This document shows positions 12,498 through 64,000 of a DNA stretch of 64,000 nucleotides, piece by piece. The notes beneath the pieces were generated by a model. The model had not been told where the DNA came from. It saw nothing but the letters and a program-made list of their open reading frames with translations, and made no database searches. A program made the position numbers and the translations under genes. How positions within the stretch are numbered: the first letter of the stretch is position 1; each line of letters opens with the position of its first letter. This DNA is from an uncultured Coriobacteriia bacterium (GTDB lineage: Bacteria; Actinomycetota; Coriobacteriia; Anaerosomatales; JAAXUF01), in contig CAWDNM010000006.1 of assembly GCA_963803785.1 (NCBI GenBank), forward strand, positions 760,135-824,134. The letters are read 5' to 3'.

Positions 12498-12506
12498 GGA
12501 CCGCCC

Positions 12507-13843: not shown

Positions 13844-13851
13844 CCGGCATC

Positions 13852-30283: not shown

Positions 30284-30319
30284 GCTGACACCCTCCCTCT
30301 CGGTGGACGCTCGTGCGCG

Positions 30320-33012: not shown

Positions 33013-35577
33013 GGGGACGACCGTGATCGTCACCATGGCCACATTGGACTCCAGCGCGCCGTCTTCCGCGCGGTACGTGAACGTGTCGGTGCCGTGGAAG
33101 CCCGCGTTCGGCGTGTATATGTAGGCGCCGTTGGTCGAAAGCGAGAGCGAGCCATGGGCCGGCGGGTCCACGAGATCGGCGGTCAGCGCATCGGTGTCCA
33201 CATCCGTGTCGTTGCCGAGCACTCCGGGCGCTGGCACCGTGAGTGCCGCGCCTTCGTTCACACTCGCCGCGTCACCGAAGGCGACGGGAGCGTGGTTCTC
33301 GGAGTACTGGAGCGTCACGCTCTTGAGCTCCGGAGACAGAACGCCATCGGTCTCGAGGCGCACGACGATGTCGATGTAGTCAGCTTCGTCTAGCGCGCTC
33401 AGATCGGTTCTCGCCGAGGCATCCGTGACCGCACGGCCTAGGTAGTTGCCGGTTCCGGTCGCCCAGTCGATTGGATTCCCGTCGTAGCCGAGCGGCTCGG
33501 TCCAGGTGATGCCGTCATCGGAGCGCCTGACGGCGAACTTGACGGCCTCGAAGGCCTGAGGAGCGACGTTTCGGCATCCAGCCTCGTCCAGGCTGCCAAC
33601 TCGGACGGCCTCTCTGCACGCAAGCCGACTGCCGAACCGCCGCCGCCGATAGTACCGATCCTGTTGCCGGAGGCCGAGAAGGCCAGCCATGCCGCGGTAT
33701 CGGTCTGACCGCCGTTGTTGAGGCCTGCTGCCACCACCGAGCCATCGGACTTGAGGCCCACAGTGTGGAACCCGCCCCCGCCTACGGCCACGATATCGCT
33801 CCAGCCCGAGACATCAAGCTGGTCGGATTCGTTGAGCCCAACTGCCACGACGGTCCCGTCGGACTTGAGGCCCACCGTGTGGTAGTCGCCCGCGCTCACG
33901 GCGACGATGTTGCTCCAGTCGGACAGGGAACACTGGTCGTAATTGTTCAGCCCCACTGCTACTACTGAGCCATCGGCCTTGAGGCCAACCGTGTGGTAGG
34001 CACCTGCGCTCACGGCCACGATATCGCTCCAGCCGGATACGGAGCATTGGCCATAGCCGTTCTCGCCCGTTGCCACGGCGGTGCCGTCGCCGTTGAGCCC
34101 TACCGTGTGCACGTCACCCGCGCTAACAGCCCTGAGGCTACTCCAGCCGCTGACGTTCAGCTCCCCATAGGTGTTCTCGCCCACAGCGACTGCAGTGCCG
34201 TCGCGTCTGAGACCGACCGTGTGCCGACCGCCCGCACTTACGGCCGCGATGTCGCTCCAGCCTGATACGTTGCGCTGGCCGTAGACGTTCTCTCCCACAG
34301 CGACCGCAGTGCCGTCGCGTTTGAGGCCGACCGAGTGGGAGTAGCCCGCGCTCACGGCCGCGATGTCGCTCCAGACTGAAACCACGGACTGCCCGAGATC
34401 GTTCTCGCCCACCGCATATACGGTGCCGCTGGACCGGAGGCCCAGCGTGTGGCGGTTCCCCGCCGCCACCTCAACGATGTCGCCCAGGCCGAGGTGTTGC
34501 GCTGTTGCGAGGCGTTGTCCCCGACGGTCACAACCGAACCGTCAGCCTCCAGACCCACGGAATGAAGGGCGCCAGCCGCAGCGGCGGTGATTCCGTCCCA
34601 GCCAGAGACATTGCGCTGGCCCATGTCATTCCAGCCCGCGGACACGACCGTGCCGTCCGACTTGAGGCCCAGCACGTGATAGTAGTTGGCGTCCACGGCG
34701 ACGATGTCAGTCCAGCCCGTGACGTCGCACTGGCCGTAGCCATTGCCCCCGTCGGCCACAACCGTACCGTCGGAACGCAGGCCGACCGTGAAGTCGCTGC
34801 CGGCGGCTATCGCGATGACGTCGGTCCAGCTCGCCGCATCGTCCCAGTCCGGGTAAACCGATCCGGTCACTACGACCGTCCCATCGGAGTTGAGGCCGAC
34901 TGTGCGGGTCTCACCCGCGGCGATTGCCTTGATGCCAGTCCATCCTGAGACGTTGCACTGATTCGACGATCCGTTTTCGGTGGAGCCGGTCGCCACGACG
35001 CTGCCATCGGCCTTGAGACCCACCGTATGGTTGAGCCCAGCAGCGACCGCGACGATGTCGGTCCAGCCGGTGACGTTCGCCTGGCCGTACGCGTTGTAGC
35101 CAGTCGTCGCTACCGCGTGACCGTCGGATGTGAGGCCCACCGTGTGGTAGTAGCCTGCGGCGATCGTCGTGATGTCGCTCCACCCAGAGACCTCGAGCGG
35201 CCCGAAGTGGTTGTCGCCCACTGCAACGACAGTCCCATCCTCTTTGAGGCCCACCGTGTGGAGAAGCCCGCCGCGACCGCCTTGATCGGCCCCGGGAGCA
35301 TGACGCTGCCCGGAGCACGGCCCGTCGACGCTCCGGAGATGGTCGTCGTCTCGCCCGTGCTGGCAGCGTTGGTCGCGAAGTCCGCCTGCGTGTCCCACGT
35401 CATCGAGTTGAGTGAGGCAGAGGCCGGAGCAGCCCCGGTGAACGCGAGACTGAGCAGCATCACCGCGAGCAACGAGATCGCCAGCGGCCTCACCGCTCCC
35501 CACTGCGCCCGAACGTGCGGAACCCGAGACTGAAGTGCGCCCATGGCTGACCCCTGCATCTGCCCTCTGCTATGCAA
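32381..35577 (-). CDS. secreted RCC1-repeat (double beta-propeller) protein with cadherin/VCBS-like domain, Ig-like stalk and conserved terminal module (about 4-5 frame changes)
   Basis: Signal peptide VRPLAISLLAVMLLSLAFTGAAPASA. About 13 RCC1-like blades follow (AAGYYHTVGLTSDGHAVATTGYNAYGQANVTGWTDIVAV..., AGDYHTVGLKSDGTVVAVGLNESDQLDVSGWSDIVAV). Next is NHAPVAFGDAASVNEGAALTVPAPGVLGNDTDVDTDALTADLVDPPAHGSLSLSTNGAYIYTPNAGFHGTDTFTYRAEDG. The stalk and module are the same as in 30336-32329. Pieces are in track ORFs 35110..35577, 34352..35503, 33438..34469, 32536..33690 and 32381..32752. Confidence 0.85.
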
Positions 35578-37037: not shown

Positions 37038-38502
37038 CTACGGGCGGGATTGCCCTTCTGTGTTTGCGGCGATCATCTCCCTGAGGTTGGGCGACGGCAC
37101 GAACAGGAACTTCCGGCCCGCACGCTGCTGGAGCAGGTAGCCGGCTTCCGTCAAAGACAGCAAGTCCGCCCGTGCGGTGGCGTAGGCGACGGCATGAGAA
37201 GCCGCATGGGACTCCATCGTGACCTGCACGCTCGGATCCTTGAGCGCACGGATCAGCACGGCGCGCTGGCGGTGATTCAGGCTGAGATCGCGCTTGAGAC
37301 TCTTCTGGAGCCGACCGTCCTCCTCAGACTTCCTACTCATGTACTCATGCAGCTCTTCTATCGCCTGCTCGATCGCGTGGAGGTTGAACGTGACGAAGTA
37401 GGTCATGTCGCAATCGTCTTGCTCGGAGTAGAGGTATGCCTTGTCGTACTGCCCTCGCCTGCCGAGGATGACGCGCGAGATTGCCAGGTACTCGAACAGC
37501 CAATAGCCCCGTTTCAACATATATAGGTAGAAGAGTGCTCTCGCCGTCCGTCCGTTGCCGTCCACGAACGGGTGGAGATAGGCCAGCCAGAAGTGGAGCA
37601 CGATCGCCTTGAGAACGGGGTACTCGAAATCGCCATCGTCGTTGTTCGCGTAGTTGCACAGGGCGATGAGTTGAGGCTCTATCTCGCTCGCGTGTGGCGG
37701 CGTGTGAAGAATCTCCATCCTTGCGTCATCGGCCACCACGACATCGTCATCGGCGGTTCTGAACCGGCCTGCGTCAGCATCGTTGTCGAGAGTTCCCTCC
37801 GTCATCGATTCCTGGAGCGTACAGATCATCTCCGGGGTGATCGGCTCGGCGAGATATGCCTTCATCTTCTGGATGGTGGTGAAGTTGTTGAGGATCGATC
37901 CGCTCCGGGCGATCGGCCGGCTGCCGACCCGTTCTAAGCATCTCCTTGGCGACTCGTGTCGTGGTCGAAGCGCCCTCGATCTGACTGGATGCGATCGCCT
38001 CTTCCATCAGTGAGTTCACGAGGAAGCGCTTCTGGTTCTCGGCAGGAATGCCGCCGCTCTCCATAGTCACGGTGCCACCCGCGCGCTTGTCGACCACATG
38101 GAGGCACCGGAGCACCTCGGGCGTGAGCGAATAGGAGAAGGGATGTCCGTTCACATCGACCACGCGTGTATCGCGGCGATCGAGCGCTCTAGAGAGCTTC
38201 AGGAGGAACCAGGCAACCTTGTGGTCGAAGCCCGTGGGGAGCGTGAGGTACTTGAACTTGTCCCAATACAGGTAGTCTTCGTTTGCGCGCCGCAGGATGT
38301 CGCGAAGAATGGGATTCTGCGCGAACGACAGTGCATCGCCTAGACTCAGGTTTGCACTACCGAGGTCCACGCTCGGAGCGGGTTCGAGCGAACGCTGCTT
38401 CAAAGTAACCCCCGAAATATCAATCGGCCCGTGTGTTGATAGTAGCACGACTACCGATGATCCGACCTGGTTCTCGGCGACGCGAAGTCGATTCGCGCGC
38501 AC
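37038..38502 (-). CDS. Fic-family protein (AMPylase/adenylyltransferase family), one frame change near 37900; start uncertain
   Basis: Canonical Fic motif HPFVDGNGRTARAL in track ORF 37038..37865. The N-terminal domain is in 37774..38502 (ILRDILRRANEDYLYWDKFKYLTLPTGFDHKVAWFLLKLSRAL...SSQIEGASTT). The C-terminal part looks like a winged helix (LNHRQRAVLIRAL). Confidence 0.85.
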
Positions 38503-38864
38503 GGCGGCAACTTACGGCATCGGCTCGGCGTGCATGGATGGTGTTCTCGCCGGCGGACGGTCGGTACAGCCCAGTGGGAGTGAACTGGATTCGCTTCTGC
38601 CGTAGAGACACCATGTTCGGAACCGAAGGTGGGCCGTGGTCCGGAAACAACGCATGGGTCAATGCGCGAATCCTCAGTCCACGCAAGCACGGTTGTGCCG
38701 CGGATGCCACGCACTGAGCACTTCGTCCACGTTGTGGCGGAGAAGGACGCCGTACTTGACCCTGGGATTAAGAGTTTGGGGCAACTAGCAGGTCAATAGA
38801 CAGATAGCCTGTTCGTTGTCACGTAGGTGTCACGGGATTGGCCGGAATGGCAATGCCGGCGCCA

Positions 38865-39012
38865 CCTAACCGCCGAGGTGTCGCATGATCTCGCCGCACT
38901 GCTCGGGAGTAATCTCTCCACTCGCAAGGCGCTTCTTGGCGATTGAGACCGCCTCATCGTCTGGAGGCTTCGTCGTGACCGCTTGGGGACATCGAGGCAC
39001 GAGACTAAGCAC
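38865..39012 (-). CDS. possible small SHOCT-domain protein downstream of cadA
   Basis: Short GTG-initiated frame ending ...DDEAVSIAKKRLASGEITPEQCGEIMRHLGG-stop. The A..IAKKRLA.GEIT.EQ pattern resembles SHOCT/DUF2078 tails (RYA.GEI..EE). Short, and not on the ORF track. Confidence 0.3.
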
Positions 39013-39054
39013 GCCAGGTTATAGGCTGCAAAGTCATGGTCGCCTGAGCACAGG

Positions 39055-41231
39055 CTACCGCTTCGCACGCTCGATGACCGGATGTGCAGACTGCCCCGCC
39101 GAGATAGTGTTGTCTTGGTATCGCAACAACCGCATCCCGTTCACGGTCACAACGATCGAGGCGCCCATGTCGGCCATGATCGCCATCCACAGCGTCAGCC
39201 ATCCGGGGAACATGAGCAGCAGGGCGAGCAGCTTGATTCCAATAGCGAACGCGATGTTGACCTTGATCGTCCGCAGCGCTGCACGACTCAGCCCACGGCG
39301 AACGGAAGCTGCGCCAGGTCGTCGGCCATCAGCGCGATGTCGGCTGTTTCGAGCGCTGTGTCGGTACCGGCCCCTCCCATGGCGACGCCGACTGTCGCGG
39401 TCGCCAGCGCGGGTGCGTCGTTCACGCCGTCACCGACCATCGCGACCTTGCCATACTCACCCAGCAGATTCGTCACGGCGTCGAGTTTCGCCTCAGGGAG
39501 CAGTTCGGCTCGATACTCATCGACACCCGCCTGAACCGCGATTGCGGCAGCTGCTGCCGGGTTGTCACCGGTCAGCATGATCGTGTGCTCGATGCCGATC
39601 CGCCTGAGTGCTGCGACCGCCTCACGACTGGTCGCCCGGACCGCATCTGCGATACCGATGACACCGATGAGGTTCCGTCACGCTCCACGAGCACGACCGT
39701 CTTGCCATCGCGGTGCAGACGCGTCGATCGGCGGCCTTCGCCATCGAGAAGTCGGCGTTGTCCGCGAGCATGCGAGAGCTGCCGACCGACATCTCATGAC
39801 CGTCGACTGTGGCCGTGACCCCGAGCCCCGACACGGACTGCATCTGGTTAATCGGGGAGCAGCGCGATTGCGCGACCCTGCGCCTCTCGGACGATTGCGG
39901 CAGCGAGCGGATGCTGCGAGCCGGTCTCCAGCGATGCCGCCAGCTGCAGCACCCTGGTCTCATCCGCACCGTCAAGTGAGATGACGTCGGTCACCGACGG
40001 GCGCCCCTCCGTGAGGGTCCCGGTCTTGTCGAAAGCCATCGGCCCGTATCGCGCCCATTTCCTCGAGATGGATGCCACCTTTGATGAGGACGCCACGGCG
40101 TGCCGCGTTGCTGATGGCGCTCACGATGGAGACCGGCGTGGAGACGACAAGGGCGCAAGGACACGAGACTATGAGCAGAGATAGGCCCCGGTAGATCCAC
40201 GGCGCCCAAGGCTGGGCCAGCAGCAACGGCGGAGCGAGTCACGATTCCAGCGGCGAGCACCAGGACCACGGGAGTGTAGATCGCCGCGAATCGTTCGACG
40301 AACGCTTGAGAAGGAGCCTTTCTGGCTTGTGCCTCCTCGACCATGTGCACGATGCGGGCGACGGTCGTGTCATCCACCAGGCGCGTCACGCGGACGCGCA
40401 GCAGGCCTTCACCGTTGAGCGTGCCGGCAAACACATCAGCGCCTTCTGTCTTCTCGGCGGGGACGGACTCACCGGTGATGGTCGCCTCGTCGAGACTCGA
40501 CGCACCCGACTCGATCGACGCCGTCGAGCGCGAGCTTCTCGCCGGGACGGACGACCATCAGGTCGCCAACGGCGAACTCCTCGACCGGAATCTCGGCCAT
40601 CTCACCGTCGGGGCGCTCGATGCGAGCTGTCTTGGGAACACCGCCCATCAGGTCGCCTATCGACCGCCTCGCACGCTCCATGGTCCACGACTCGAGCATC
40701 TCCGATGCTGAGAACAGGAAGGCGACGACCGCCGCTTCCTCCCACGCACCGATAGCGCCGGCGCCGATGATTGCCACGGACATGAGCACGCTCATGTTGA
40801 AGTCGAGCTTGGGCAGTGAGAACGCCGCCTTGCGGAAGTTGCTCCATCCGCCGAGCACAATCGCGACGATGTAGAGGCTCATGAAGACAGGGGCGACGGC
40901 GTCCAGCTTCTCCGCTGCAAAGGCCGTCGCGATGAAGGCCCCCGATGCGATCGTCCGTACGAGCTCCCAATCGACGCCCGCCTTCGACGGGGCAGCAGTC
41001 TGCTGCTCTTCAGCGGTCAGTATCCGGTAGTTCTCCTTGCGACCTTCAGCCCGGATGGCCTCGAGGTCGCAGAGCGCCCTCGATGGTGAGCTTGCCCGCT
41101 GTGGGGTTGAGCCGCGCCACGGTCACGCCGGGCAGCTTGGCCACGTTCTTCTCGAACTTGGCCGCACAGTCGAGTCAAGTGATCCCTTCGACAAGCAGGG
41201 TGCATGTCGCGGTCTCGCTCGGCGATGACAT
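39055..41231 (-). CDS. cadA: P1B-type heavy-metal (Cd/Zn/Pb-type) translocating ATPase, about eight frame changes plus an in-frame TGA
   Basis: ATG at 41231 after AGGAGG. HMA domain [44 protein letters not shown]. Motifs are ITGES, the CPC motif ([15 protein letters not shown]), DKTGTLT and [15 protein letters not shown]. The tail ...[12 protein letters not shown] ends with a stop at 39055-39057. Pieces are in track ORFs 40469..40882, 39991..40434, 39972..40226, 39848..40096, 39622..39975 and 39288..39578. Confidence 0.85.
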
Positions 41232-43599: not shown

Positions 43600-45694
43600 T
43601 CACTGTCCGCCCTTCTTCGGCCATGCGGCGAGCGCCGCACCCAGCAGAAGAAGGGCGAAGCCTCCCCACGCAAAGCCGATCAGAGGGGTTGATCTTCACG
43701 TTCATCGACAGCTGACCGCCCTGAGTGCCTTCCCAGACAACGAAGACGTCACGAAGAGGCTCAGACATCACCGATGCGTCGCGCCGGGACTGCCCTGCTT
43801 CGAGCGAACTGCGTCTGTCCAGGGGTGATGTCGCCGAGCTGACGCCCGTTACGCGACACGCCAAAGACGGCGGTGGACTTGGTGTCGCCGTTGACTTGCT
43901 GGATCTCCTTCGTACTCCTTGTAGGTGAACGTGTAGTCAGAGACCGTGAATGTGGCGCCTGGCTGTCGGCGACAACGGTACGCACGTCGCGCACGTACAT
44001 CGATGAACCCACGAGGCCGATCAGGATGATGCCCATCCCGATGTGCGCGAGGTAGCCACCGGACTGTGTCCGGGCCTTGAGGAGGATGTTGCCGAGCGCG
44101 GCGAGCATGCCCTTCGTTCTTCGCCGCCGCACGCTTGCGGGTGCCATCGATGAAGAGCCATGTCGTGTTCGAGATGATCAGCGAAGCAGCGGCGAGTCCG
44201 AGTATCGCAATCGCGCTGTAGATGATCTCAGGACCATAGGCGAGGAAGCGCCTTGGCGTTCGTGCCGCCCTCGGCGACCATCGCCGAATAGACTGGACGA
44301 AGGTTGAACCACCACTCGGCCGCGAGCAGTGCGAACAGCACGGCGGCACCGATGAGGGGCGTCGTGATCCGGTTCCAGAACGTCGAACCATCCGTCCTTC
44401 GCCAAACCAGTATCGGGCAGACGGCGATGATGAGCGCGTACAGTACGCCGAGCGGACGTGCGATCAGGTTGTACGCAGTGGCGCTCATCGACTGTCCGCC
44501 GAATGGCAACCACGAGGGCAGCGCCGACGAGACCGTCAGGTAGGCGACCAGGAGCCCCGCCAAGCAGCATGATCACGTTGTTGAAGTAGTACGCCGCCTC
44601 TTTGCCGGTGAACGACTCGAACTCATCGTTACCAGCGAACGTGGCCCAGCGGATACCAGAGCCCGATTGCTGCGGCGACGACGGCCCCGATGATCATCGT
44701 GAGGAAGAGCACTAGCGATACGGGGTCCTTCTCAAACGCGTGCACAGACTGCACTACGCCTGACCTCGTGATGAACGTGCCGAGGATCACGAGCGCGAAC
44801 GTGAATGCCGCCATCATGACGGTCCAACGCTTGAAGCCGTCACGACGCCGATAGATGGTGAAGCTGTGGATGAGACCGACGCCGGTCAGCCAAGGCAGAA
44901 GGGAGGCGTTCTCGACCGGGTCCCACGCCCAGTAGCCTCCCCAGCCGAGCACGACGTAGGCCCACACCGAACCCAGACCGATACCCGCGCCGAGGAACAG
45001 CCACGAGAACACGGTGATTCGGTCGACGATCTTGACCCATGCGTCTGACCCGTCGTTGACGATGAGCGAGGCGATGGCGAACGCGAAGGGAATCGTGAGA
45101 CCCGCGTAGCCAATGAACAGTGTCGGAGGGTGCAGAATCATCGCCCAGTGCTGCAGGAGCGGGTTCATCGCTGCGTCCACAAGGAGCTCGCCGTTCGGGC
45201 CGAGCCACCCGGCGGGTGATGTCCTTGAACGGGTTGTTGGGAGCCGGAGAGCATCATGCCGGCAGTGAACATCGCGAGGATCAGGTTCGTGACTGGCCAA
45301 GCCCATGTTCGACAGCCTGTCGGTGATGTCCATTCGACGGTAGGCGATCCATGCGGCGAACATAGCGAGCAGCCACGCCCAGAAGAGCAGGGAACCCTCA
45401 CGCCCCGCCCACAGGCCTGAGAGCTTGTAGAGCCAGGCCAGGCTCGACACGTCTGTGCTGTGATTCTCAACGACGTACATCAGCGAGAAGTCGTTGCCGA
45501 AGAAGCCCGGCCACGATGATCAGGTTGGCCACGGTCAGTGCTGCGGCGGCGATGAACGTCGCGAGGTAGCCGGGGTGGAGCCCGGTCACCGGCTCCTCGC
45601 CCCCGGGTCCGGTTCGCATCCTTGGAAGCACGAATAGGGAGAAGATCGATGCGAGTAGCGCTACTCCGAGCGCTACGGTGCCAAACGTTGCCAT
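43600..45694 (-). CDS. ccmF: CcmF/NrfE-family cytochrome c-type biogenesis (heme lyase) membrane protein (about seven frame changes)
   Basis: ATG at 45694 after AGGAGG. Characteristic segments are FFGNDFSLMYVVENHS, LYKLSGLWAGREGSLLFWAW and the W-rich heme-handling motif GWGGYWAWDPVENASLLPWL. Many TM segments. The tail ...VKINPLIGFAWGG...AAWPKKGGQ ends with a stop at 43600-43602. Confidence 0.8.
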
Positions 45695-45745: not shown

Positions 45746-46827
45746 CTACGGGCGACATGCGCCGACGTAGTCGCTGTGCAGGGCTGAGATCTTCACGACG
45801 TCGCCTGTTCGAGGCGAGTGGATCATCATGCCGCCACCGACATAGATGCCGACGTGGTGGATGGGGCTTCCAAAGAAGACGAGATCGCCGGGCTGAAGGT
45901 CGCCTCTACTCACTCGCTGGCCAGCGAAGATCTGGGCCCGGCTCACCCGTGGCAGCCGAACTCCGACCTGCCTGTAGACGTACATGGTGAACCCGCTGCA
46001 GTCGAAGGTGTTCGGGCCTTGTGCGCCCCAGACGTACCGCGCACCGAGGTATCGCTTCGCGACTGAGACGACCTCAGACCGAGCAGCTCGTGTCGGTGGC
46101 GGGAAGGTGCGACCACCCGGATTCGGACCTGCGAGACTGCTCGAGCAGCCTCGCTCGGCACGCCTTCGCTCTTCGGCCCTATCGAGTGCAGCGACCTGCG
46201 CTTCGAGTCCCGAAAGCATTCGTTTGCGGTCGGCGAGCTTGGCCTTCGATCGACTTCTTGCGAGCTGGCGAGGTTGCGCGAGACTGCGGCAGCCTGATCG
46301 GTGCGCTGCTCTAGCGTCTTTCGCGCCTCGGCCTGTTCGGCCTTCGCCACTTTCAGATCTGCGACAGTACGAGCGTCATCTTCGTTCTGTTCGCGAAGGA
46401 AGTCCCACGTCTGGCGAACGCCTCGAAGTCCGATACGCCGAGCAGCACGTCCACGAAGCCGAGGACCGTTTCGGTACATGCTCGCGGCACGCGAGTCGAG
46501 GCGCGCTTGCATCGCCTTAGTACGTTTCGTGGTCGCTTGAGTCTCTTGGCGGCGGCCTTCTCCTGTTTGGCGAGGTTGCGTGTGACGCTCCTGAGCGTCG
46601 TTGAAGTCCTCCGAGAGAATCTCAGTCTGCTTATCGAGGACATCGACCTGGACCTTGACCCTCCTGGCACGGGCGATCATCTCGTCCCTAGGTGCGGCGT
46701 TCGCGCACGGCGACGAGAGGGTGGCGGCAGCAACAGCACGGATGCCGCTGATGGAGGCCGCGACCAAGGTCAGGGCCAGGCCTCGGCGAGACCCGCTCCG
46801 GTCGCGACCGACTACCGACCGCCGCAC
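45746..46827 (-). CDS. NlpC/P60 (C40) peptidoglycan endopeptidase with signal peptide and coiled-coil N-terminus (about four frame changes)
   Basis: The catalytic region is YVWGAQGPNTFDCSGFTMYVYRQVG...GDLVFFGSPIHHVGIYVGGGMMIH (track ORF 45746..46219). The N-terminal coiled coil is VKVQVDVLDKQTEILSEDFNDAQ...VADLKVAKAEQAEARKTLEQ. The GTG start at 46827 overlaps the upstream stop (TAGTG). Confidence 0.8.
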
Positions 46828-47496
46828 TAGCGAACCACCAGCGTGCCGCGATCCATATCCATCCCACATGCGAAGGCATACGTGCCGGGCTCCAAGCGCC
46901 GGCAGCTTCACCGTCACGGGACCACCCTCCAGGCTCTGTCGGATCGTTCAACTCAGGGAAGACCACCTCTGCAAGGCACCCAGAACCTTGACCGAAGGTG
47001 ATCTCGACTGGCTTGCCGGCCTCAGCAGTCAGCTGCGACGGCGCGAACGAACCTGAGGATGTGTCCACCGTCAGAGCCTGGCCCTGCCGGATGGCTTCGC
47101 TGCCGCACTCTCGGCAGGAGCGGAAGCAGCACTCTCAATAGGAGCGGATGTCGCAGCCGGAGCTGATGCGTCGACCAAGCCGGTTGGGGCGAGGGCCTGG
47201 CGCACGCTCTCTTCCGTGGCCTTCGACTCACAGAATCCGGCCTCGAGCGTCGACGTCTTGAAGTTGTACGTGGCGGTGTTCATGCCGTCGGCAGGGTTCA
47301 GGGCAGCGAACAGAGTCTCTGCCGTCTTGGTGGGATCCGCGTCTGCCGGAACAGCCAGTGCGATCGTCGCCGTCGAGCACGGTTGGCCTTGCGAGAAGGT
47401 CTGACTGATTGAATCGCCCTCGATCTGAGGCTTGGTGGTCTGATTACCGACAACCATCGCGATCACGATGACCGAGCCGACGATGACTGCGGTCAC
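46827..47496 (-). CDS. membrane-anchored protein with C-terminal cupredoxin-like domain (about two frame changes)
   Basis: The N-terminal TM is VTAVIVGSVIVIAMVVGNQ. An Ala/Ser/Pro linker follows. The cupredoxin-like fold is LTVDTSSGSFAPSQLTAEAGKPVEITFGQGSGCLAEVVFPELN...VTVKLPALEPGTYAFACGMDMDRGTLVVR-stop (46827-46829). Confidence 0.65.
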
Positions 47497-55035: not shown

Positions 55036-55295
55036 GGCGGCTCCTGTATCAACGGGGACAGACAGGTCGATCGGATGCGCCAGTAGATATGCGGGCTGCG
55101 TAGGCCGCTCGAGGTTTGTTGAAGGTGAATCCGTGTTGTTTACACGAGGGCGGGCCCTGAGACAGACCTTCGCTGCGAATGGATGGTGTTGCTTGGCACA
55201 AGACACCTATTTCGTGCCGGGACGCCTGCAATCCGACAGAACGGGGGACCCTCCGGAGCGGACGAGACAACCGCCTGCCGCAAGGAGACCCGAAG

Positions 55296-55871
55296 ATGGC
55301 ATCGAGAAGGAACCGCCTGCCCCGCACGAAGACTCCCGAGGAATGGTCCGCGTTCTTCGCGGCGATCAACGTCCGTTACGCCACCCAGATGAGAAACCAC
55401 GCCTGCCTGTACTTGATGTACATGACCGGGATTCGCGTGGGCGAGTGCCTCAGCCTCTACGTTGAGGACTTGGACTTCGACCGGATGCGTCTACATGTCA
55501 GATCGGGCAAGACGGGTGAGAGGAACGTACCGCTTCCCGACGACGACAAACTCAGAATCAGCGTCGAACGGTGGCTCACGGTCCGTGAGGGCTGGAATCC
55601 GCCCTCTCCCCTCCTGTTCCTCACCAAGCCGGGCAAGGCACTTTCGCCCAACGCGGTCAGGGAAAGCATGCGGCTCTACGCCGCGAGGGCCGGAATCGGT
55701 CATGCGTCGTGCCACATGCTCCGACACTCGGCGGCGACAGAACTGCTAGCGCAGGGCGCAAGTCCAATCGGCGTCCAGAGAATCCTCGGCCATGCGAGGC
55801 TAAGCACCACCCTGAACATCTATGCATCGGCCGCCGATTCACACGCCGCGGAGGCGATGGCCAGGAGATGA
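55296..55871 (+). CDS. short tyrosine recombinase (catalytic domain only, ~191 aa)
   Basis: ATG at 55296, 8 nt after AAGGAG. Catalytic residues are recognisable: R in LMYMTGIRVGECLSL, HxxR in SCHMLRHSAATELL, and H/Y in ILGHARLSTTLNIYAS. No N-terminal core-binding domain. Confidence 0.8.
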   Translation: MASRRNRLPRTKTPEEWSAFFAAINVRYATQMRNHACLYLMYMTGIRVGECLSLYVEDLDFDRMRLHVRSGKTGERNVPLPDDDKLRISVERWLTVREGWNPPSPLLFLTKPGKALSPNAVRESMRLYAARAGIGHASCHMLRHSAATELLAQGASPIGVQRILGHARLSTTLNIYASAADSHAAEAMARR

Positions 55872-56049
55872 ACCTGATTCCCACTTGGGCATCACAACCA
55901 TCAAGTTGAGGCCGAGGGTTTCGCTCACGCGCGCGGTGGTTCACAAGGTCATGAGGGCGTAGATTGAGCTTGAGACGACGTCTCGCGGCATCAATGTACT
56001 GTCCCGACCGCACGTGTCTTGCTCGCCCGAATCAGATTGGGGGGTGCGA

Positions 56050-57558
56050 ATGCCCGACCATCGCGTCGACAGAGCCGACTTGATGAATCGCATGATGGCC
56101 GCTCTCGACGACCCCGACCCCGCCGTGCGCCGGTACTCCGCCCAAGCACTCGGACGCGTTGCTGACCCCTTAGCGGTGCCGCCCCTCGTCACAGCCCTTC
56201 GTGACCTCGATAGTGACGTCCGCTGGAAGGCAGCCGAAGCACTCGGCCGAATCGGTGATCGCGCAGCGGCAGTCCCTTTAACGCTCGCCCTTCGGGATTC
56301 CGAGAATCGAGTCCGCTGGAAGGCCGCTCAAGCACTCGGTTCGGTTGGTGACGCCGCTACGGTGCCGCACCTCGTTGCCGCTCTTGATGACTCCTTCTTC
56401 GCCGCGCGCAACGCCGCCGCGGAGTCGCTCGGCGCACTCAGGGACCCCACCGCCGTGCCACACCTCATCGCCATCCTGAATGACCTAGTGGGGGGCCGGA
56501 AAGCTGCCGAGGCGCTAGGCGCCATTGGGGACCCCGCCGCCGTGCCGCACCTGATCGCCCAGCTGAGCAACCCAATCGCCAACACCAAGGCGGTTGCGCA
56601 GGCCCTTACGGCGATCGGAGACCCATCGTCCGTGCCTCGTGTCATCGTTGCCCTATATGACTCCGAAAGTTGGACACGGCGCAACGCTGCGATGGCCCTT
56701 GGCATCATCGGCGATCCGGCAGCTGTGCCTCATCTCACCACCGCCTTGGATGACGATGACGGCGGAGTACGGGTCAAGGCCGCGGAGGCCCTTGGCGCAT
56801 TTGGAGACCCCGCAGCCGTACCCCGCCTCATAGCGGACCTTGCTGATCCCGACAGCTACGAGCGTGCCTACGCTGCTGTTGCCCTCGGGGAAATCGGTGA
56901 TCGCTCAGCGGTGCCGGACCTTATCCTCGCCCTCGATGACATTGAAGAGGGTGTGCGCTGGGATGCAGCAAAGGCTCTCGGTGCGGTGGGTGATTCTGCG
57001 GCCGTGCCGGCCCTGATCACAGCGCTGTTCGACCCAGACTCGGGGGTACGCAGCAACGCTGCCGCGGCGCTTGGCCGAATCGGTGATCCCGCCGCGGTGC
57101 CCCACCTCATCGCAACATTCCTCTGCCCTGACCCATACGTGTGCCGTAGCGCCGCCCAGGCACTCGGCGAGATCGGCGATCCCGCAGCCGTGCTGCCGCT
57201 CATTTTGCTTGTGGACGACAGTGACATCGAGGTGCGCCACAACGCGGTCGAGGCACTGCGCGTAATCAACGACCCTATGGTCGTTCCGCACTTTACTTCG
57301 GCCTTGGCTGATCCCGACCCGAGTGCGCGACGGGTGGCCGCCAAGGTGCTCAGGGTAATCGGTGATCCTGCCTCTGTGCCCAGCCTTGTCGAGGCCCTGG
57401 ATGACAGCGACGAACGCGTGCGTTGGATTGCCACGGAAGCGCTCGGCGAGATTGGCGACCCAGTGGCGGTGCCCCGACTGACCATGGCATTCGTCGATGC
57501 TGACACTCGAACCGCCATGGTTGCGGCCCGAGCGCTTCTGCTGATGACTCGCCAGTAG
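56050..57558 (+). CDS. HEAT-repeat (PBS-lyase HEAT-like) protein, 15 full ~31-aa repeats plus one partial
   Basis: Intact ORF (the track ORF begins at the GTG at 56014; the ATG is at 56050). The repeated unit is D.D..VR..AA.ALG.IGDP.AVP.LI.AL, e.g. DLDSDVRWKAAEALGRIGDRAAAVPLTLALR. Confidence 0.85.
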   Translation: MPDHRVDRADLMNRMMAALDDPDPAVRRYSAQALGRVADPLAVPPLVTALRDLDSDVRWKAAEALGRIGDRAAAVPLTLALRDSENRVRWKAAQALGSVGDAATVPHLVAALDDSFFAARNAAAESLGALRDPTAVPHLIAILNDLVGGRKAAEALGAIGDPAAVPHLIAQLSNPIANTKAVAQALTAIGDPSSVPRVIVALYDSESWTRRNAAMALGIIGDPAAVPHLTTALDDDDGGVRVKAAEALGAFGDPAAVPRLIADLADPDSYERAYAAVALGEIGDRSAVPDLILALDDIEEGVRWDAAKALGAVGDSAAVPALITALFDPDSGVRSNAAAALGRIGDPAAVPHLIATFLCPDPYVCRSAAQALGEIGDPAAVLPLILLVDDSDIEVRHNAVEALRVINDPMVVPHFTSALADPDPSARRVAAKVLRVIGDPASVPSLVEALDDSDERVRWIATEALGEIGDPVAVPRLTMAFVDADTRTAMVAARALLLMTRQ

Positions 57559-57662: not shown

Positions 57663-60600
57663 CTACTCCTCTTCGAAAGCGGAATCCCTGAAGCGCAACA
57701 CGCCCGCGTTCTCCAACACCGTGCGCTGCACCGCTTCGGGTACTCCACCCGGCACCTCGACCTGGATGTCGATCTCGACAACAACCCTCGCGCCCGGCAG
57801 CACCGCCAGATGCGCCAAGATGTGCTCCCCTATCTTCGCGGCATCGCCGCCAGGGGCAGTTGCGTTGATTTGTACGCTCCCGTGGAATCGACGCGGCAGG
57901 ACAGGTCCGGTGGCCCCCTCTGTCGAGCCGCCCACGGGCGTGCCTTCGATGGTGGGGGTGTCGCCCCCTCCCCACAACGTGCTCGGCTCGGGCGTACCTC
58001 CGGGAATCGGCAGCGGCACCTGAACGCCATCGCCCTTCTGCGCCAGTACCGATGTCTTGATGACGAAGCCACTCGCCATCACGCTCGCGGCCTCTCCAGC
58101 ATGAAGCCCACGATAGAGTGCGCCGGGCTCGTCGAAGGCCTCGGCATAGCCGAAGGTCTCGCTCTGCCAGTTGAGTGATGCGATACCGTCCTGTACTGCA
58201 CCGAGGAGAACACCCATATCTCGCATACGCGGGAGATAGAGGTATTGGGCAAACAACTCCCACAAGGGTCGAACCCCGATGCTTTCGTCCTTCCACAAGG
58301 GGATACGGTCCAGCCACATCCGGAGCACTGTGCCAGCCATCTTCGTAACGATCTGCTCCTCGTTGACGAGCTTGCGTGAGATGCGAACCGCCAGCTGCTC
58401 GTCACCAGCGACCTTCATCGCTCGCCATTCGATGTCACCTGCAGGGTTCGGCTGATCGGGCACGAGGACCCACTGCCACGCTTCACTCACTCGGTGACGA
58501 GCTGCCTCGCCCGTGTCCCGCAGCTTGGTCTCAACCTGCTGCATCTCCGCAGGTCCAAGATTCTGAGCTGTGGCGTCTCTCTGGATTGACTCCCAAGCGA
58601 GCATCAACCGCACTGCGGAAACGAGCGACTCCAGAACGGTGCGATCGGCTGCGAGAAAGATCAACATGTTGCGGAATCTTCGAGGTCCCGCGCCGCGGTC
58701 CTCGAGAATCTCTGCGACTCGTTTCCGCGCTTCTGAGTTGTCGGTCTTTGCCGAATGCGCGTATTTCGGTCCGAGCACCACGAGACGCGTCTCGGGTTCA
58801 TCCGCAACTTCAGACGCCGATTCCGGCGCCACGTGCACGCCACAAAACTCCCCTCGCTGCACGCACGCGACTCGAAGCAGCTTCACAATCTCGGCATCAA
58901 CATCCGCCGGCTTGAACGCGTCAGCGCGATCCTGCGCAAGCCTCGTCAGAGTCGGCTTCACCGAAAACGAGTACCGCGTCCCATCAGTCGTCAGATGAGT
59001 GGCCTTGTCAGATAGGCGACGAAGCGCGTCGCCGAATACCGCAGAGGGCTCGCCAGGCTGCACGCAACCAAGCTTGATCCTCTTGTCCTCAATGCCCGGG
59101 TGCTTGGTCCCCACCGTGGGCGCCGAGCCCAGATAGACCGTGCGCGCCACTCGCCTCGTCGCCGAGTAACGACCCAGGTTGGGGTTCTCACGGTCAATCG
59201 CGACGGGCAGCGAATTCGCGCCGTCAACATCCTTCTCGATGATTGGCTTCCAGTTGTCCTCGAGATAGCGCGTGAGCTCTGAGAGGACCGATTCGTGATC
59301 GATTGGAACGCTGCCTGGGGTGATAAGCAGACTGGAGTCCTCACCAACCCACAGCGCATGTACTACTGCGGCCATCAATCGGAGCACGCCTCGTGTCCGC
59401 TGGAATCGCTCGAGCGTCGACCAGTCTGAGTAGAGGCGCTCGAATAGTTCAGGATGGATGGGGTAAGCCATCTCCATACGGCGACGGTAGTCGCCCTCAC
59501 GCGTCTCCCGCGGGAACTCCTCACGTTGGCCCGAGTACAGGTCAGCGAACCCTTGAATGACGGCATCGCGTGCCAAACACGCGTCAGGACTGATGTCCTC
59601 AAAGAGCCGCCGGCGCACGATCTCGAAGCTCTCTTCCGCAGTCGCCGGTCGCCATGGAGATTGCAGCCTACCAACCACGTTCTTGAGTCGCTTCAGCGCC
59701 TCGAATCCGCCCTCACCACCAATCTCAGCGGCACTTGCGGACGTCTCCGGGTGGTCAACATCTCGCACAGCGTCCGACGCCGGTATCGACACCACGAGGA
59801 GCGCACCAGGCACAGCGTTCACGGACTCAGTGAGCGCCTGTGCGAAAGTGAAGTGGGTATCGAACGTTCCTGCCGGCAGGTCTGAGTTCGAGTACAGCTG
59901 TCGCGCGTACGCGACCCATTCGTCGATGAGAATCACACACGGAGCGTAGCTCTTGAGAACATCTCGGAGTGCCACGCCGGGGCTCGTGCTGGTTGCATCA
60001 GCCTCGGCCACCAGGGCAAACCCCTCGGCCCCGCCAAGCTGCCAAGCGATTTCTCCCCAAAGCGTGCGAACGACGGTGCCGTCTGGCTTCGTGACGGGCT
60101 GCCCGGGCGCGACCGCCGTGCCCACGATGACGGCACGCTTCACAACATCCGGTCTGGATACCCCTGCTGCCTCGAGGAGTTCAGTCACACCAGAGAGCTG
60201 ATCGACTGGAGCATCCGAGAAGAGGTGGTAGAGCGCCAGAAGCGAGTGGGTCTTTCCCCCGCCGAAGTTCGTTTGAAGTTCGACGATTGGATCGCCCCCT
60301 TCGCCGCTCAGCCGCTCCGCGGCCCTCGTGAGCAGTGAACGCAATCCCTCCGTCATATAGGTGCGACGGAAGAACTCCGCCGGATCTCTGTACTCGTCCA
60401 CTCCTTCACCGCGATGAACTTGGGCGAGGTCGGCTGCGAATTCTGCGGTCTGATATCGGCCCGTCGCGACGTCATGGTGCGGCTTGATAACGTGGCGCCA
60501 AGGCGTGAGCCCAGAAGACGGCGTGCCCTCAAGTGCGGCCTGCACGGCTCGCTTGGACTCTCGCTTGGTCTGCTCGTCAAAACGAATGCGCAGCAGCTCT

Positions 60601-60991
60601 TGCTTCATCCTGTCTGCGTCCACGGCTTCGGAGGCAGATACCGCTGCGAGCAGACGCTGGACACTGTCCAGTGCCCGGTACGCATCATCGGTAGAGAACT
60701 GCTCATTGTGCGCCCACCGGTTTCGGGTATCCCGCAGCTCTCTTACGAGCGTTCGCTCCGAGGAACCAAGGACCTTGCTGAAAACCTGGTTCCACGCGTC
60801 CCCCATAGCCTTCAGTAGTGCGAGGAATCACGGAACTCCGCTTCCGACGAACCCGGCTTTCCAGGAGTACCGATCTGGGTATCCCACCCCTCGCCCAGCG
60901 ACGCGTGCATTTCGCGCAGGAAGAACGGTCGCAGGCCTATGGCCAGCAACTCCAAACCCTTGCCGACCCGATCACGATTAGTCGTTGCCAT
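57663..60991 (-). CDS. DUF499-family (COG1483-like) ATPase with N-terminal Swt1-like HEPN domain (one frame change near 60815-60830)
   Basis: ATG at 60991 (MATTNRDRVGKGLELLAIGLRPFFLREM...) joins track ORF 57663..60806. The HEPN Rx4H motif is in VRELRDTRNRWAHNEQFSTDDAYRALD. The P-loop-like segment is ELQTNFGGGKTHSLLALYHL. A long conserved body follows (VILIDEWVAYARQLY, AYPIHPELFERLYSDWSTLERFQRTRGVLRLMA). It starts 26 nt downstream of the methyltransferase. Confidence 0.8.
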
Positions 60992-61017
60992 CTACGTTCG
61001 TCCCCTCATTGGCTGAG

Positions 61018-63803
61018 TCAGATCTCGAGCTTGCCCTGCGCGGTCCCGCTGATGGATGAGCCCGACGAGGCCAGCTTCACAATCTCCGGCCAGGCTACGA
61101 CTAGCGCGTTGAATGGCATGGCGTCCCGGCTCCAGCCCTTCTTCTCGCAGACGGCGAAGAGGCGGTACGCAAGGTCACGAGCGATTTCGCCATACGCAGC
61201 ACCGACGCGAGCGAGCAAGTCAGCCGCTCCGCTCTCGCCACGCATCTTCGAGCGAACGCACGAGATACTGTGCGACCTCCCAGACGGTGAGCATCTTGTC
61301 AGTCGCTGGGTCCCAGTCATCCGCAAGCTCATCGCGTTGGAGGAGGCGAACCTTCCCTGCACCCGACTCAACGAAGCCGTCATGTGCGAGTGTGTCGACG
61401 GAAATGGCCTTGGCTTTGGCCAGGATGTCCGCGACTCCGTACGCCCCCTCAGAGAACCCCTCTTGTTCGAACCATGCGAGCGCCCAGCGAGTCGCCGGAT
61501 CATACTCACTGTCTTGCTCCGAGAGCACCTCGTCCAGCACTTGATTTACTAGCGCGAGTGCCGCACGCACCGGCATCGCAGAATCCGTCCGCTTCGACGA
61601 CCTTCGAGTACGCCGAGAAGACGCCCATTCCCGGTCCAATCGCTGCCTGCGCGAGGTCGACTGGCGCGATGTTGCCATGCTGCAGAACGCGGAGTGCATC
61701 CGGTAGCTCACGCCGGAGCGCGCTGACGAATTCGCTACGCGTCGCCATCGGTGCCGACGACTCGCGTGGACGGCATACGAGAACGATAGATGAGGCCAGG
61801 GCATTCGTGCCCGACGCTGTCGGACGGTTCGAGAGCTCACTTCGCATAGGCCACGTTCCGAGCACGACGAAGCCCGCGGCCAAGAGACCTTCTAGCATCG
61901 TTTCCCAGCCAGTCGATGCCGTCTCGGTGTCATCAGTCTCAGCTTGCTTGAATGCGTAGTAGACAGTCAGTGGGAACCGCACGTCGTGCGCGTCCCGCAT
62001 CCGCTCGAACGCATGACCGAGGCCCGTTTCAAAGAACTCCTGAGCTTTGTGCCTGTCTCCACCAAAGCGATACGGCGTGGCCACAAGTTCCTGCGCCTTG
62101 GGCACGAGCAGGGTACTCATCAGCTGCGGATAAACGCTGCCGAGCGATTGCCGGAGCCAAACGTAGAAGAAGTCCGAGAGGTCTGCATAGCCGATGTTGT
62201 CGTAGTAGGGCGGATCGGTGGAGATCATCGGCCTCACAACTTGTTCGATTGCGGCCGCCGCGTCCATCTGATGTGCCTCACCAGTTGCGCGCGGACAGGA
62301 GGCCTCGAGCACGCGGATGAGGCTACCTAGGGACACTTCATAGTCTCCTGCCGCACCACCGAAGATGTTGTTTTCCGCGTAGTCCCAAATCATTGGGATT
62401 GCCTGGCGGCCGAAGAGATTTCGCACCTGCGTCTTGCTACTCTCCCAGCGGCACAGAGAGTTGCTGATGTCCGCAAGTCGACTGACCCCGAAACCTAGGT
62501 AGGTGGCGACCGCGTCCGCGTACGCCCGCGCGCCGGAACCGCCATCCTCCATGGAGACGTCATCGTTGGGCATCCCGCTAGCGAGCGCATCCAGAAGGAC
62601 CCGCTCGCGTGCCTCTCCCACGAGATCGCAGAATGTGCCCAACGCAACGAGCTGCCGAGGCGTGAACAAGTCGGAGAACTTCGTCATGCCGTAGTTTGGT
62701 GTCTTGAAATCGCGTGGGTTGTGCGGCAGCGGTACATCCGGCTTCCAAGAGGGTACCGCCGACTCTGAAATACGGACATGCTCGTCATTTGGCTCGACGT
62801 AGAGCCGGCCTCGCGCACTTTCAGCGACAATAGCTATTAGCCGCTGGCCCATTCGACCGGCCCGTCCCTCTGCGCGAACGTGCTCGAACGGCACCGAGGA
62901 ACCACAGACTACGCAGCGTCCCCCACGGCGGTTTACAGTGCCGTCTTGGGGTACCCCCTCCCCAGTCCGCACCTTAAAGCGCACCCGCTTGGTCTCCCTA
63001 TCCACGACCGGCTCAACCCACGCGCCTTGTCCCTTCTTCTTGGACAACCACCATTTGTTCGTGAGCGGCATCTCAGCGTGACACGCCGGGTTGGGGCATT
63101 CCACTGTCCGCACCCAGAGCCACGCGATTACGGTAGCCTCGCCGCCGCCATATATCGCCGGCAGTTCAACCCTCGGATAGAGCATCCCGATGCGTTCCTG
63201 TGCTTGCTCGCGCATCCACGCGCCATAGCGGCGCACGTCCTCGGCAAGCCCTCGAGCATGAAGCCACACTCCCGCCCCCAGAGTCGCGGCGTCTGCATCA
63301 GGGTGAACGGGCGCTCGACCTGCAAAACGGGGCGGTATTTCGATGAGTCCCTTTGTGATGAGCACCGCGACGGGGTTGAGGTCACTGCCATGCGCCTCAA
63401 GTCCCAGCCTCTGCGCCTCAAGCGGGATGGATCCTCCGCCGCAGAATGGGTCGAGCACAGGCGGGGCGTCGCCGTTCGTCGAACGGACTATCTCCGCGCG
63501 TGCGGCGGCCAACACAGCTTCGTTACCGGTGTTCTCCCACTTCACGAGTTCCTCAATGACGCGGAACAAACGCTGGCGCTCAATCTCCTGGAGCTCACTC
63601 GTAGGGTATTGGTCGGGATGCGCTGATGGGTCGTCCACGAGCGATGAAAAGAGCACCGCGCGGCACGTCGCAAGCGGCTTGCGGGACCACCACAGGTGGA
63701 GCGTCGAGGGATGGCCGTGCCGGATGGACTTCTCTTTCGCCGACGCAACGTTAATCGCTTCAAGCGGCAGCGCTACCTCGATCAGCTTCTTCTTGTAGGT
63801 CAC
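61018..63803 (-). CDS. DUF1156-type (COG1743-like) DNA methyltransferase with Zn-ribbon (two frame changes in the 3' quarter)
   Basis: Track ORF 61506..63803 plus pieces in 61220..61840 and 61018..61509. The DUF1156 N-terminus is KKLIEVALPLEAINVASAKEKSIRHGHPSTLHLWWSRKPLA. The SAM motif is VLDPFCGGGSIPLEA, the Cys clusters are CPNPACH...CVVCGS, and the catalytic motif is MISTDPPYYDNIGYADLSDFFYVW. Confidence 0.85.
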
Positions 63804-63828
63804 TAGACTCCTGAATCGTCAGCTGGGT

Positions 63829-64000
63829 TCAGCGGATCTGGCGTACAGGTCCGGCCAACGTGTAGTTCACGCTCGTCGCGTCAAAGATGATCCCGGCATC
63901 GCCGGCGAACGGACAGCGCACGTATCGCACGCTGGTTCCCCCGTCCGCACCCACGCGCACGAGAGCGAGCACGTAGTCCTCCCCCTTGTTCAGTCCGTGG
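63829..64000 (-). CDS. 3' end of an upstream operon gene (partial, function unknown)
   Basis: The open frame to the window edge reads ...HGLNKGEDYVLALVRVGADGGTSVRYVRCPFAGDAGIIFDATSVNYTLAGPVRQIR-stop (TGA at 63829-63831). It ends 25 nt before the methyltransferase start. Confidence 0.5.
   Translation of the reverse strand, partial: HGLNKGEDYVLALVRVGADGGTSVRYVRCPFAGDAGIIFDATSVNYTLAGPVRQIR

Follow-up and report, generated by a model that had tools for sequence, protein, structure and literature searches.

A compact, HEPN-fused Hma operon of the Type-1 BREX-related kind from a freshwater-sediment actinobacterium, with three frameshifts that are most likely assembly errors

Introduction

Hma, a defence system composed of the proteins HmaA, HmaB and HmaC, is said to owe its PADLOC name to Payne et al. 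(2021). It is a DUF499-centred BREX-related (BR) system of Type 1, a gene neighbourhood reportedly first noted by Anantharaman et al. in 2013. Hma has been tested experimentally in Halomonas meridiana, where HmaA on its own was enough to protect E. coli from T4 by a nickase defence (PMC11232893). A protective role for the methylase HmaB was not demonstrated in that study, T4 grown on HmaB-expressing cells being unaffected. Septu and AAA_21 are inserted in the Halomonas locus, and integrases are found near 19% of hma loci (PMC11232893).

Type-1 BR systems consist of an ATPase, a DUF1156 N6-methyltransferase whose TRD contains a single Zn finger, and a Snf2 helicase-REase, and they include HEPN-fused forms; HEPN stands at the N-terminus of DUF499 in 1370 of 2446 Type-1 taxa and is thus the majority form (Rakesh & Krishnan, NAR 2026, PMC12839542). 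The only BR system with a mechanism worked out is MANTIS (Gao_RL), which belongs to Type 2 (bioRxiv 10.64898/2026.09.23.753747). Here a DUF499 AAA+ ATPase loads the methylase, loading being dependent on the ATPase, short asymmetric sites become hemimethylated and a helicase-nuclease restricts. Type-2 systems add a small fourth gene, mtsB, which the NAR survey calls DUF3780 (PMC12839542) and the MANTIS preprint DUF3870 (bioRxiv 10.64898/2026.09.23.753747); their helicase has its PLD nuclease at the N-terminus and lacks a C-terminal REase.

Organisation of the locus

The window, that is the whole stretch of DNA analysed (64,000 nucleotides), ends within a set of three minus-strand genes which all point in the same direction: an hmaA fragment, a 25-nt gap, hmaB, a 26-nt gap and hmaC (Table 1). 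The initial annotation had described this packing, and the 56 visible C-terminal codons of the first gene, correctly. The order hmaA, hmaB, hmaC is shared with 57 of 59 related loci, and a similarly compact arrangement is seen in 10 of 55. Since these loci as a rule have the helicase-nuclease 5' of the methylase, the 3' side lacks nothing; the want of a nuclease or helicase gene there had been remarked upon as an oddity.

Neither hmaB nor hmaC is a single open reading frame in the sequence as given. The longest uninterrupted frames are 765 aa (61506-63803) in hmaB and 1047 aa (57663-60806) in hmaC; the protein lengths first put forward, 928 aa and ~1108 aa, hold after three single-base frameshifts are read through, but not as ORFs. 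We consider it likely that the locus is a compact hmaA-hmaB-hmaC Hma operon, HEPN-fused and cut within hmaA by the window edge, and that its frameshifts are errors of assembly.

Table 1. Features of the Hma locus and its flank (positions are those of the window)
Feature	Position	Strand	Remarks
Short tyrosine recombinase (phage-integrase family)	55161..55868	+	Pfam Phage_integrase 1.7e-34, profile positions 5-171 of 172
HEAT_PBS-repeat protein	56014..57558	+	Convergent with hmaC; Pfam HEAT_2 3e-103
hmaC	57663..60991	-	ATG start at 60991, stop at 57663; 1109 aa across one frameshift
AAA+ core (hmaC)	59916..60263	-	Walker A GGGKTHS 60243-60263; Walker B VILIDEW 59916-59936
HEPN (Swt1-like) domain (hmaC)	60618..60961 (approximate limits)	-	Pfam; Rx4H motif RNRWAH at 60708-60725
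hmaC frameshift	60809..60823	-	-1 nt within the HEPN domain, following codon 58, ...EFRDSSH / LLKAMGDAWN
hmaB	61018..63803	-	GTG start at 63803, stop at 61018; 927-928 aa after reading through two frameshifts
hmaB frameshift 2	61231..61246	-	Most simply +1 nt, LEDA / GESGAADLLARVG; upstream frame runs into TGA
hmaB frameshift 1	61574..61589	-	+1 nt at VVEADG/SAMPVRAAL
Motif IV DPPYYDN (hmaB)	62196-62216	-	
Cys pair CVVC (hmaB)	62898-62915	-	
Cys pair CPNPAC (hmaB)	63078-63098	-	
Motif I DPFCGGGS (hmaB)	63429-63452	-	
hmaA 3' end	63829..64000	-	56 codons at 63832-63999, stop codon 63829-63831

Domains and motifs of the three proteins

The product of hmaC is predicted to be a HEPN_Swt1 domain fused to a DUF499 ATPase, a BrxC-like AAA+ protein of the ORC/Cdc6 type. 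Pfam places HEPN_Swt1 at aa 11-119 (3.4e-31) and recognises DUF499 at 2.7e-30, and the PADLOC HmaC profile scores 1009.4 bits, aa 162-1108 aligning with profile positions 3-941 of 941. The HmaC of H. meridiana differs in lacking the HEPN domain; in the present protein the profile begins only at aa 162. HmaC is 71% identical to that of the related locus L001 over residues 1-1109. The HEPN motif is retained as RNxWAH in 89 of 94 relatives, and 92 have some form of the Rx4H motif; GGGKTH is kept in 91 of the 94. The HEPN fusion occurs in nearly all relatives fetched and, being also the majority form in the published survey, is not the special trait for which it had been taken.

For hmaB, domains and motifs indicate an N6-adenine DNA methyltransferase with DUF1156 (Pfam, 1.1e-29) and a Zn-ribbon in a TRD insert, a single Zn finger in the TRD being what Type-1 BR methylases also have. 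The PADLOC HmaB profile scores 1179.7 bits over aa 4-917, and the protein is 72% identical to its L001 counterpart. Its only stretch of low identity, aa ~478-520, is variable across all homologues, and both alternative frames contain stops there. The FCGGGS, DPPY, RNRWAH and GGGKTHS motifs named in the initial annotation were all located, and profile searches upheld its DUF499, DUF1156 and HEPN_Swt1 assignments (Pfam, rounded, 3e-30, 1e-29 and 3e-31). Of the Cys4 clusters ascribed to the methylase the Cys pairs are present, but they make up one cluster, C-x4-C plus C-x2-C. A PDB sequence search returned no relatives among solved structures for HmaB or HmaC.

The gene at the edge had been left as unknown. 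Its 56 residues match positions 1118-1163 of the 1176 in the PADLOC HmaA profile (E 2e-4), and in tblastn they align with the very C-terminal end of HmaA in 21 related loci, best with L001 HmaA (64% identity, E 3.5e-14). The latter reaches 1623 bits against the HmaA profile and contains SNF2/ResIII, Helicase_C and NOV_C domains; it also matches the DrmD and BrxHI/HII profiles. The fragment is thus predicted to be the C-terminus of an HmaA, a Snf2 helicase ending in a PD-(D/E)xK/NOV_C nuclease, for which the helicase core and catalytic residues are assumed. The helicase motifs and the nuclease catalytic D/E/K fall beyond position 64000, outside the window, and the suggestion that effector genes lie there was right inasmuch as this is where the body of the helicase-nuclease gene is placed.

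Neighbours and host

The host is a freshwater-sediment actinobacterium. Its actinobacterium-like character, recognised from the outset, is borne out by an FHA/PstP/RodA/PbpA/PknB cluster at 10-17 kb, and the closest HmaC was found in a Coriobacteriaceae genome. A tyrosine recombinase gene situated 1.8 kb beyond the end of hmaC may be a mobility gene of the island. Distant integrase-family genes occur near Hma in 8 related loci, and in having an integrase nearby this locus resembles the ~19% of hma loci already cited (PMC11232893). No tRNA gene that might serve as an integration site is present within the window. The intervening HEAT-repeat protein was considered as an Hma component and set aside, as none of 116 Hma loci contains a homologue and its PADLOC matches are repeat-driven. 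A weak Cas2 match on the antisense segment 52804-53517 (E 1e-4) was likewise rejected, since no CRISPR array is present and the sense strand codes for an ABC-type binding protein and for metabolic genes.

Frameshifts and the error background of the window

Homologues run unbroken through the first hmaB junction, reading ...E(A/S/P)DG(T/A/N)(A/P)M(R/S)VR..., and L001 likewise reads EFRDAYVLLKAMWDYWN without interruption at the hmaC junction, where the shift creates a TGA stop after ...DSSHY. None of the three junctions lies within a long homopolymer. Exact-protein look-ups of the 1047-aa and 765-aa ORFs gave no record, and in genome and metagenome collections no near-identical copy of the locus turned up, the closest reaching 71% for HmaC and 66-67% for HmaB, so the junctions are not comparable at the DNA level. 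A search of sequencing runs with the Hma stretch returned zero runs, and contigs from runs that contain the core genes gave motif-sized matches only, from distant homologues, when compared with the Hma locus.

The window as a whole is dense in single-base indels, the essential genes rodA, pbpA and pknB included. Frame switches were called by three-frame translation and Pfam, a GC3 frame plot having been dropped as too noisy. Positions 140-242 of the FTSW_RODA profile are matched in a different frame from positions 247-345, and a like split separates 75-199 from 201-251 of the Transpeptidase profile and 11-65 from 84-182 of the PP2C profile. Counted by eye, there are ~15 frame switches in 5.9 kb of the window, and at least seven in a 2.2-kb P-type ATPase gene. 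Comparison with short-read metagenome contigs of relatives reveals ~96 places of single-base indels in 5.9 kb, and these coincide with frame switches at 12967 (rodA), 15592 and 16118 (pknB). Indels are far denser in these essential genes than in the Hma genes; neither homopolymers nor GC content is supported as the cause of this unevenness. Since single-base indels pervade the window and short-read contigs of relatives restore the frame in essential genes, the three Hma frameshifts are most likely artefacts of assembly and not biological inactivation. The initial annotation had held that genuine frameshifts would speak against its proposal, and left the three that are present unreported; against this background they are probably not genuine.

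It is nevertheless conceivable, albeit unlikely, that the locus is a truly decayed Hma remnant, with a methylase and ATPase rendered non-functional by real frameshifts, for instance following selection against autoimmunity or the loss of phage pressure. Defence loci often decay, the shifts stand in the sequence as given outside long homopolymers, and no reads were found that contradict them. Decay fits poorly, however, with the far denser indels in the window's essential genes, which the contigs of relatives correct. The Hma genes carry indels only, with no in-frame stops or nonsense codons, deletions or hidden compensated shifts, and all their catalytic motifs are intact. Furthermore, an identity of 71-72% to the closest homologue over the full length is unlike neutral decay with three indels. 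A narrower reading, in which the indels are genuine and a HEPN-Hma system has been silenced very recently, the methylase hit twice and the ATPase once within HEPN, appears more doubtful still. Were it true, the locus would capture a methylation-based defence in the course of being silenced in an environmental actinobacterium, whether through the cost of autoimmunity or as a phase-variable on/off state.

Relation to other methylation-based systems

The assignment to Hma, and thus to Type-1 BR, rests on the PADLOC HmaB and HmaC scores together with the HmaA C-terminal match. The three protein families occur in the same order as in Hma, with very high profile scores and a NOV_C-type helicase C-terminus, and the combination of HEPN-fused ATPase, DUF1156 N6-methyltransferase and predicted Snf2 helicase-REase is that of Type-1 BR. 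There is no substantial difference between the latter and the present copy, of which the helicase TUDOR, motor and nuclease lie outside the window. From the Halomonas locus with its inserts it differs in being compact, in its three frameshifts and in being cut at the edge.

The ATPase and methylase of MANTIS are homologous to those encoded here (bioRxiv 10.64898/2026.09.23.753747), and HmaC, HmaB and HmaA to BrxC, BrxXI and BrxHII, the three core proteins of Type-3 BREX (PMC12839542). Taken with the DrmD and BrxHI/HII matches of L001 HmaA, and with the sequence upstream of 64000 lying outside the window, this lends some support to an ordinary type I/III restriction-modification locus, or to Type-3 BREX, Type-2 BR or Type-3 BR with further genes beyond the edge. 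Such an assignment is very improbable. The HmaB and HmaC profiles are the best by a wide margin: PglX reaches only 17 bits against 1180 for HmaB, and HmaC matches the HmaC and DUF499 profiles only, which argues against membership of Type-3 BREX. The latter comprises six genes including PglZ, BrxA and BrxF, its BrxC matches DUF6079 rather than DUF499, its methylase has no DUF1156 N-terminal domain and its helicase no active C-terminal nuclease (PMC12839542). Type-3 BR has a standalone PglZ, iSTAND and a helicase without nuclease fusion. In the visible part, up to position 64000, there is no PglZ or iSTAND. No subtype-specific extra core gene, such as the standalone DUF3780/MtsB of Type 2, separates the three genes, and DUF3780, PglZ or iSTAND could not fit gaps of 25 and 26 nt. 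The edge fragment, moreover, matches the NOV_C/HmaA-type, PD-(D/E)xK C-terminus specific to the nuclease-bearing helicases of Type 1, and the closest loci are tripartite, A-B-C.

The earlier proposal that the genes form the core of MADS, an operon of mad1-8 with a type-I-like methylase and specificity subunit (Maestri et al. 2024; 10.1101/2023.03.30.534895), is barely credible: the likeness is a general one between multi-gene methylation-based defences with ATPases, and MADS has been grouped with BREX and MANTIS on that footing (bioRxiv 10.64898/2026.09.23.753747), but its mandatory markers are MAD6-8, the preprint text never mentions DUF499 or DUF1156 (10.1101/2023.03.30.534895), the system is absent from the BR survey (PMC12839542), and the proteins here score as HmaA, HmaB and HmaC, the latter two at ~1000-1200 bits. 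The broader proposal of a methylation-associated defence operon was sound, PADLOC and Pfam identifying it as Hma/Type-1 BR.

Proposed mechanism and significance

By analogy with the family, HmaB would methylate adenine in a short host motif and so mark self. HmaC, going by its homology to the Type-2 (MANTIS) ATPase, would load or activate the methylase on DNA and would sense unmodified invader DNA. Restriction of the invader would fall to HmaA, a Snf2 helicase bearing a PD-(D/E)xK nickase at its C-terminus, as shown for Halomonas HmaA. It is attractive to consider that the HEPN domain of HmaC may act as a back-up RNase, shutting down the cell should restriction fail.

The locus is an ordinary copy of a kind already described: previous work has described the system together with its HEPN fusion and gene order, and experimental tests exist for one member of the family and for a sister type. 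As the assembly contains pervasive single-base indels, any 'pseudogene' or 'frameshift' finding in this window calls for confirmation at the level of reads. A compact HEPN-Hma operon free of cargo inserts would provide a handy minimal construct for questions about Type-1 BR systems, namely whether HmaC, like MtsA in MANTIS, loads the methylase, and whether HEPN is an active back-up RNase.

Identity of the locus

The three genes at 57663-64000, all on the minus strand and in the same direction, are the Hma system of PADLOC, a defence system that has already been described. Its name was changed to Type-1 DUF499-centred BREX-related (BR) system in a 2026 survey. The system has three components: an AAA+ ATPase of the DUF499 family, an N6-methylase with a DUF1156 domain, and a Snf2 helicase whose C-terminus is a PD-(D/E)xK nuclease; it is present in 2446 taxa, and its gene neighbourhood has been on record since 2013 (PMC12839542). 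The initial annotation, made from sequence alone, had described the same layout, with gaps of 25 and 26 nt, and every motif that it named is present. Its domain assignments are borne out by Pfam matches to DUF1156 (1.1e-29), HEPN_Swt1 (3.4e-31, aa 11-119) and DUF499 (2.7e-30). Against the PADLOC profiles, the methylase scores 1180 bits (HmaB, aa 4-917) and the ATPase 1009 bits (HmaC, aa 162-1108). The 56-aa fragment at the window edge corresponds to positions 1118-1163 of 1176 in the HmaA (Snf2 helicase) profile, and matches the extreme C-termini of HmaA in 21 related loci, best that of Coriobacteriaceae bacterium EMTCatB1 (64% identity, E 3.5e-14). The locus of this bacterium, the nearest relative (71-72% identity), encodes an HmaA of 1230 aa with SNF2/ResIII, Helicase_C and NOV_C domains. 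In Halomonas HmaA the catalytic residues are D1084, E1104, K1106 and E1121 of 1183 (PMC11232893); the nuclease residues of the present protein would be predicted to lie just past the window end.

Membership of the methylation-associated defence system MADS, tentatively proposed at first, was rejected: PADLOC assigns the genes to Hma, and the description of MADS never names DUF499 or DUF1156 (10.1101/2023.03.30.534895).

Features of the Hma locus and of the surrounding window
Feature	Position	Strand	Remarks
hmaA 3' end	63832-63999, stop 63829-63831	minus	last 56 codons; gene cut by window edge
hmaB (DUF1156)	GTG 63803 to stop 61018	minus	25-nt gap after hmaA
hmaC (HEPN-DUF499)	ATG 60991 to stop 57663	minus	26-nt gap after hmaB
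Frameshift, hmaC	60809-60823		-1 nt; within HEPN domain
Frameshift, hmaB	61574-61589		+1 nt
Frameshift, hmaB	61231-61246		most simply +1 nt
Short tyrosine recombinase, then 514-aa HEAT_PBS-repeat protein	55161-57558		directly 3' of hmaC
Fic-domain protein	37041-38006		intact; PADLOC SoFic profile, 9e-38
Indel-broken essential/housekeeping genes	10000-17300, 38850-41130, 32539-33813, 44632-45519, 45946-46947		PstP, RodA, PbpA, PknB, P-type ATPase, others
Tandem PD40 (TolB-like beta-propeller) surface-protein paralogues	28298-30340, 30339-32153
Cadherin/Big_9 protein	32539-33813		adjoins PD40 pair
114-nt tandem repeat	33717-34412		~5.5 copies, 72-82% alike
RCC1-repeat gene	34355-35569		Pfam RCC1_2, six stretches
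PAS + HD_5 (HD-GYP-type) signalling protein	23903-25579

Frameshifts and assembly error

Neither long gene is open throughout. The lengths of 928 and ~1108 aa originally reported stand only with read-through of three single-base frameshifts that had not been mentioned; the longest ORFs are 765 and 1047 aa. No in-frame stops or hidden compensated shifts were found in hmaB or hmaC, where the damage consists of indels only, all motifs and full-length similarity being kept.

Single-base indels pervade the whole window. By three-frame translation the PstP-RodA-PbpA-PknB cluster (11.4-17.3 kb) changes frame ~15 times, with Pfam matches split between frames in FTSW_RODA (positions 140-242 and 247-345), Transpeptidase (75-199 and 201-251) and PP2C (11-65 and 84-182), whilst the P-type ATPase at 38.9-41.1 kb contains at least 7 frame switches. 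Metagenomes from freshwater sediment supply short-read contigs (85-99% alike) that differ from the window at ~96 single-base indel places across 5.9 kb of the core cluster. Three of these, 12967, 15592 and 16118, are the exact frame-change points of rodA and pknB, in the direction expected for bases inserted in the window, and the frames of the broken core genes are restored in the relatives' contigs. Since essential genes are broken by indels only and repaired in relatives, assembly error is indicated. The Hma genes carry the same kind of damage, and thus their three frameshifts, judged from this window-wide background, are very probably assembly artefacts rather than genuine inactivation. 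No read or near-identical sequence across them was found. Indel density is uneven, at 3 in 6.3 kb of Hma versus ~1 per 0.3-0.5 kb of the core cluster, and no indel was noticed in the HEAT and PD40 genes; GC or homopolymer content was not supported as an explanation, and a mixed-strain consensus in the core genes is a speculative one. Given so error-prone an assembly, any pseudogene call in the window is unsafe.

At 63853, 8 codons ahead of the hmaA stop, a base is missing in one metagenome contig (~87% alike), which may reflect a fourth indel or natural C-terminal variation. The first ~240 residues of the open frame of the PAS/HD_5 signalling protein appear out of frame or non-coding.

Comparison with related loci

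The locus was compared with 116 fetched Hma loci, a sample biased to HEPN-bearing relatives because the query itself carried this domain. Several features singled out initially prove to be the family norm, although the defence system itself had been correctly spotted. The order hmaA, hmaB, hmaC is kept in 57 of the 59 loci holding all three genes, so the lack of a helicase or nuclease gene 3' of hmaC is normal. The HEPN fusion is likewise the common form, being found in 1370 of the 2446 Type-1 taxa (PMC12839542), and within the HEPN-biased sample RNxWAH is conserved in 89 of 94 relatives (any Rx4H form in 92). The Walker A motif GGGKTH is conserved in 91 of 94. In 10 of 55 related loci neither intergenic gap exceeds 150 nt, a compact state that the window's copy shares; this copy is thus the minimal form. 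Inserted defence genes occur in about two thirds of hma loci (PMC11232893). The EMTCatB1 locus exemplifies this insertion hotspot: a GmrSD_N/DUF262 gene (3895-5736 of that locus) separates hmaA from hmaB, and a pair encoding an MqsA-like antitoxin and a SecB-like chaperone (8862-9903) separates hmaB from hmaC.

Host and neighbourhood

The host is actinobacterium-like, as first proposed, given the PstP-RodA-PbpA-PknB cluster and a nearest relative among the Coriobacteriaceae; it probably derives from freshwater sediment. The low-GC setting that had been remarked upon is not specific to Hma, since GC is 0.60-0.66 throughout 24-64 kb versus 0.66-0.72 ahead of 24 kb. Nor do the surroundings form a dense defence island, as the genes at 38-55 kb are mainly metabolic or envelope genes. 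The nearest other defence-like gene, ~20 kb away, encodes the SoFic-like protein, a possible single-gene defence candidate. The recombinase, of the phage-integrase family, lies 1.8 kb from hmaC; integrases are frequent hma neighbours (PMC11232893), and distant integrase-family genes occur near Hma in 8 of the 116 loci. The gene for the HEAT-repeat protein has no counterpart in any of these loci. Neither tRNA genes nor CRISPR arrays were found in the window.

Elsewhere, a stretch of ~65 aa (TTLTRTSGASTLSAYGKSYAFTGKLTAGG...) is nearly identical between the second PD40 gene and the cadherin/Big_9 gene, suggesting that genes for cell-surface proteins have recently duplicated or recombined. The 114-nt tandem repeat overlaps and adjoins the RCC1-repeat gene 3' end.

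Proposed mechanism

From its family, HmaB would be expected to mark host DNA by adenine methylation. One published test did not show HmaB protecting phage DNA (PMC11232893), and in Type-1 systems the methylation step is thus only putative. In MANTIS, the sister Type-2 system, the methylase is loaded by an AAA+ ATPase together with a small co-factor and leaves short asymmetric sites hemimethylated, with restriction carried out by a helicase-nuclease (bioRxiv 10.64898/2026.09.23.753747). By homology to MANTIS and the BREX ATPase BrxC, HmaC may load or activate the methylase and sense unmodified DNA. HmaA would translocate and nick or cleave invader DNA, as for the Halomonas meridiana homologue, where hmaA alone protected E. 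coli from T4 and the nickase was needed (PMC11232893). Finally, the HEPN domain may, as hypothesised in the literature and consistent with its conserved Rx4H motif, serve as a back-up RNase.
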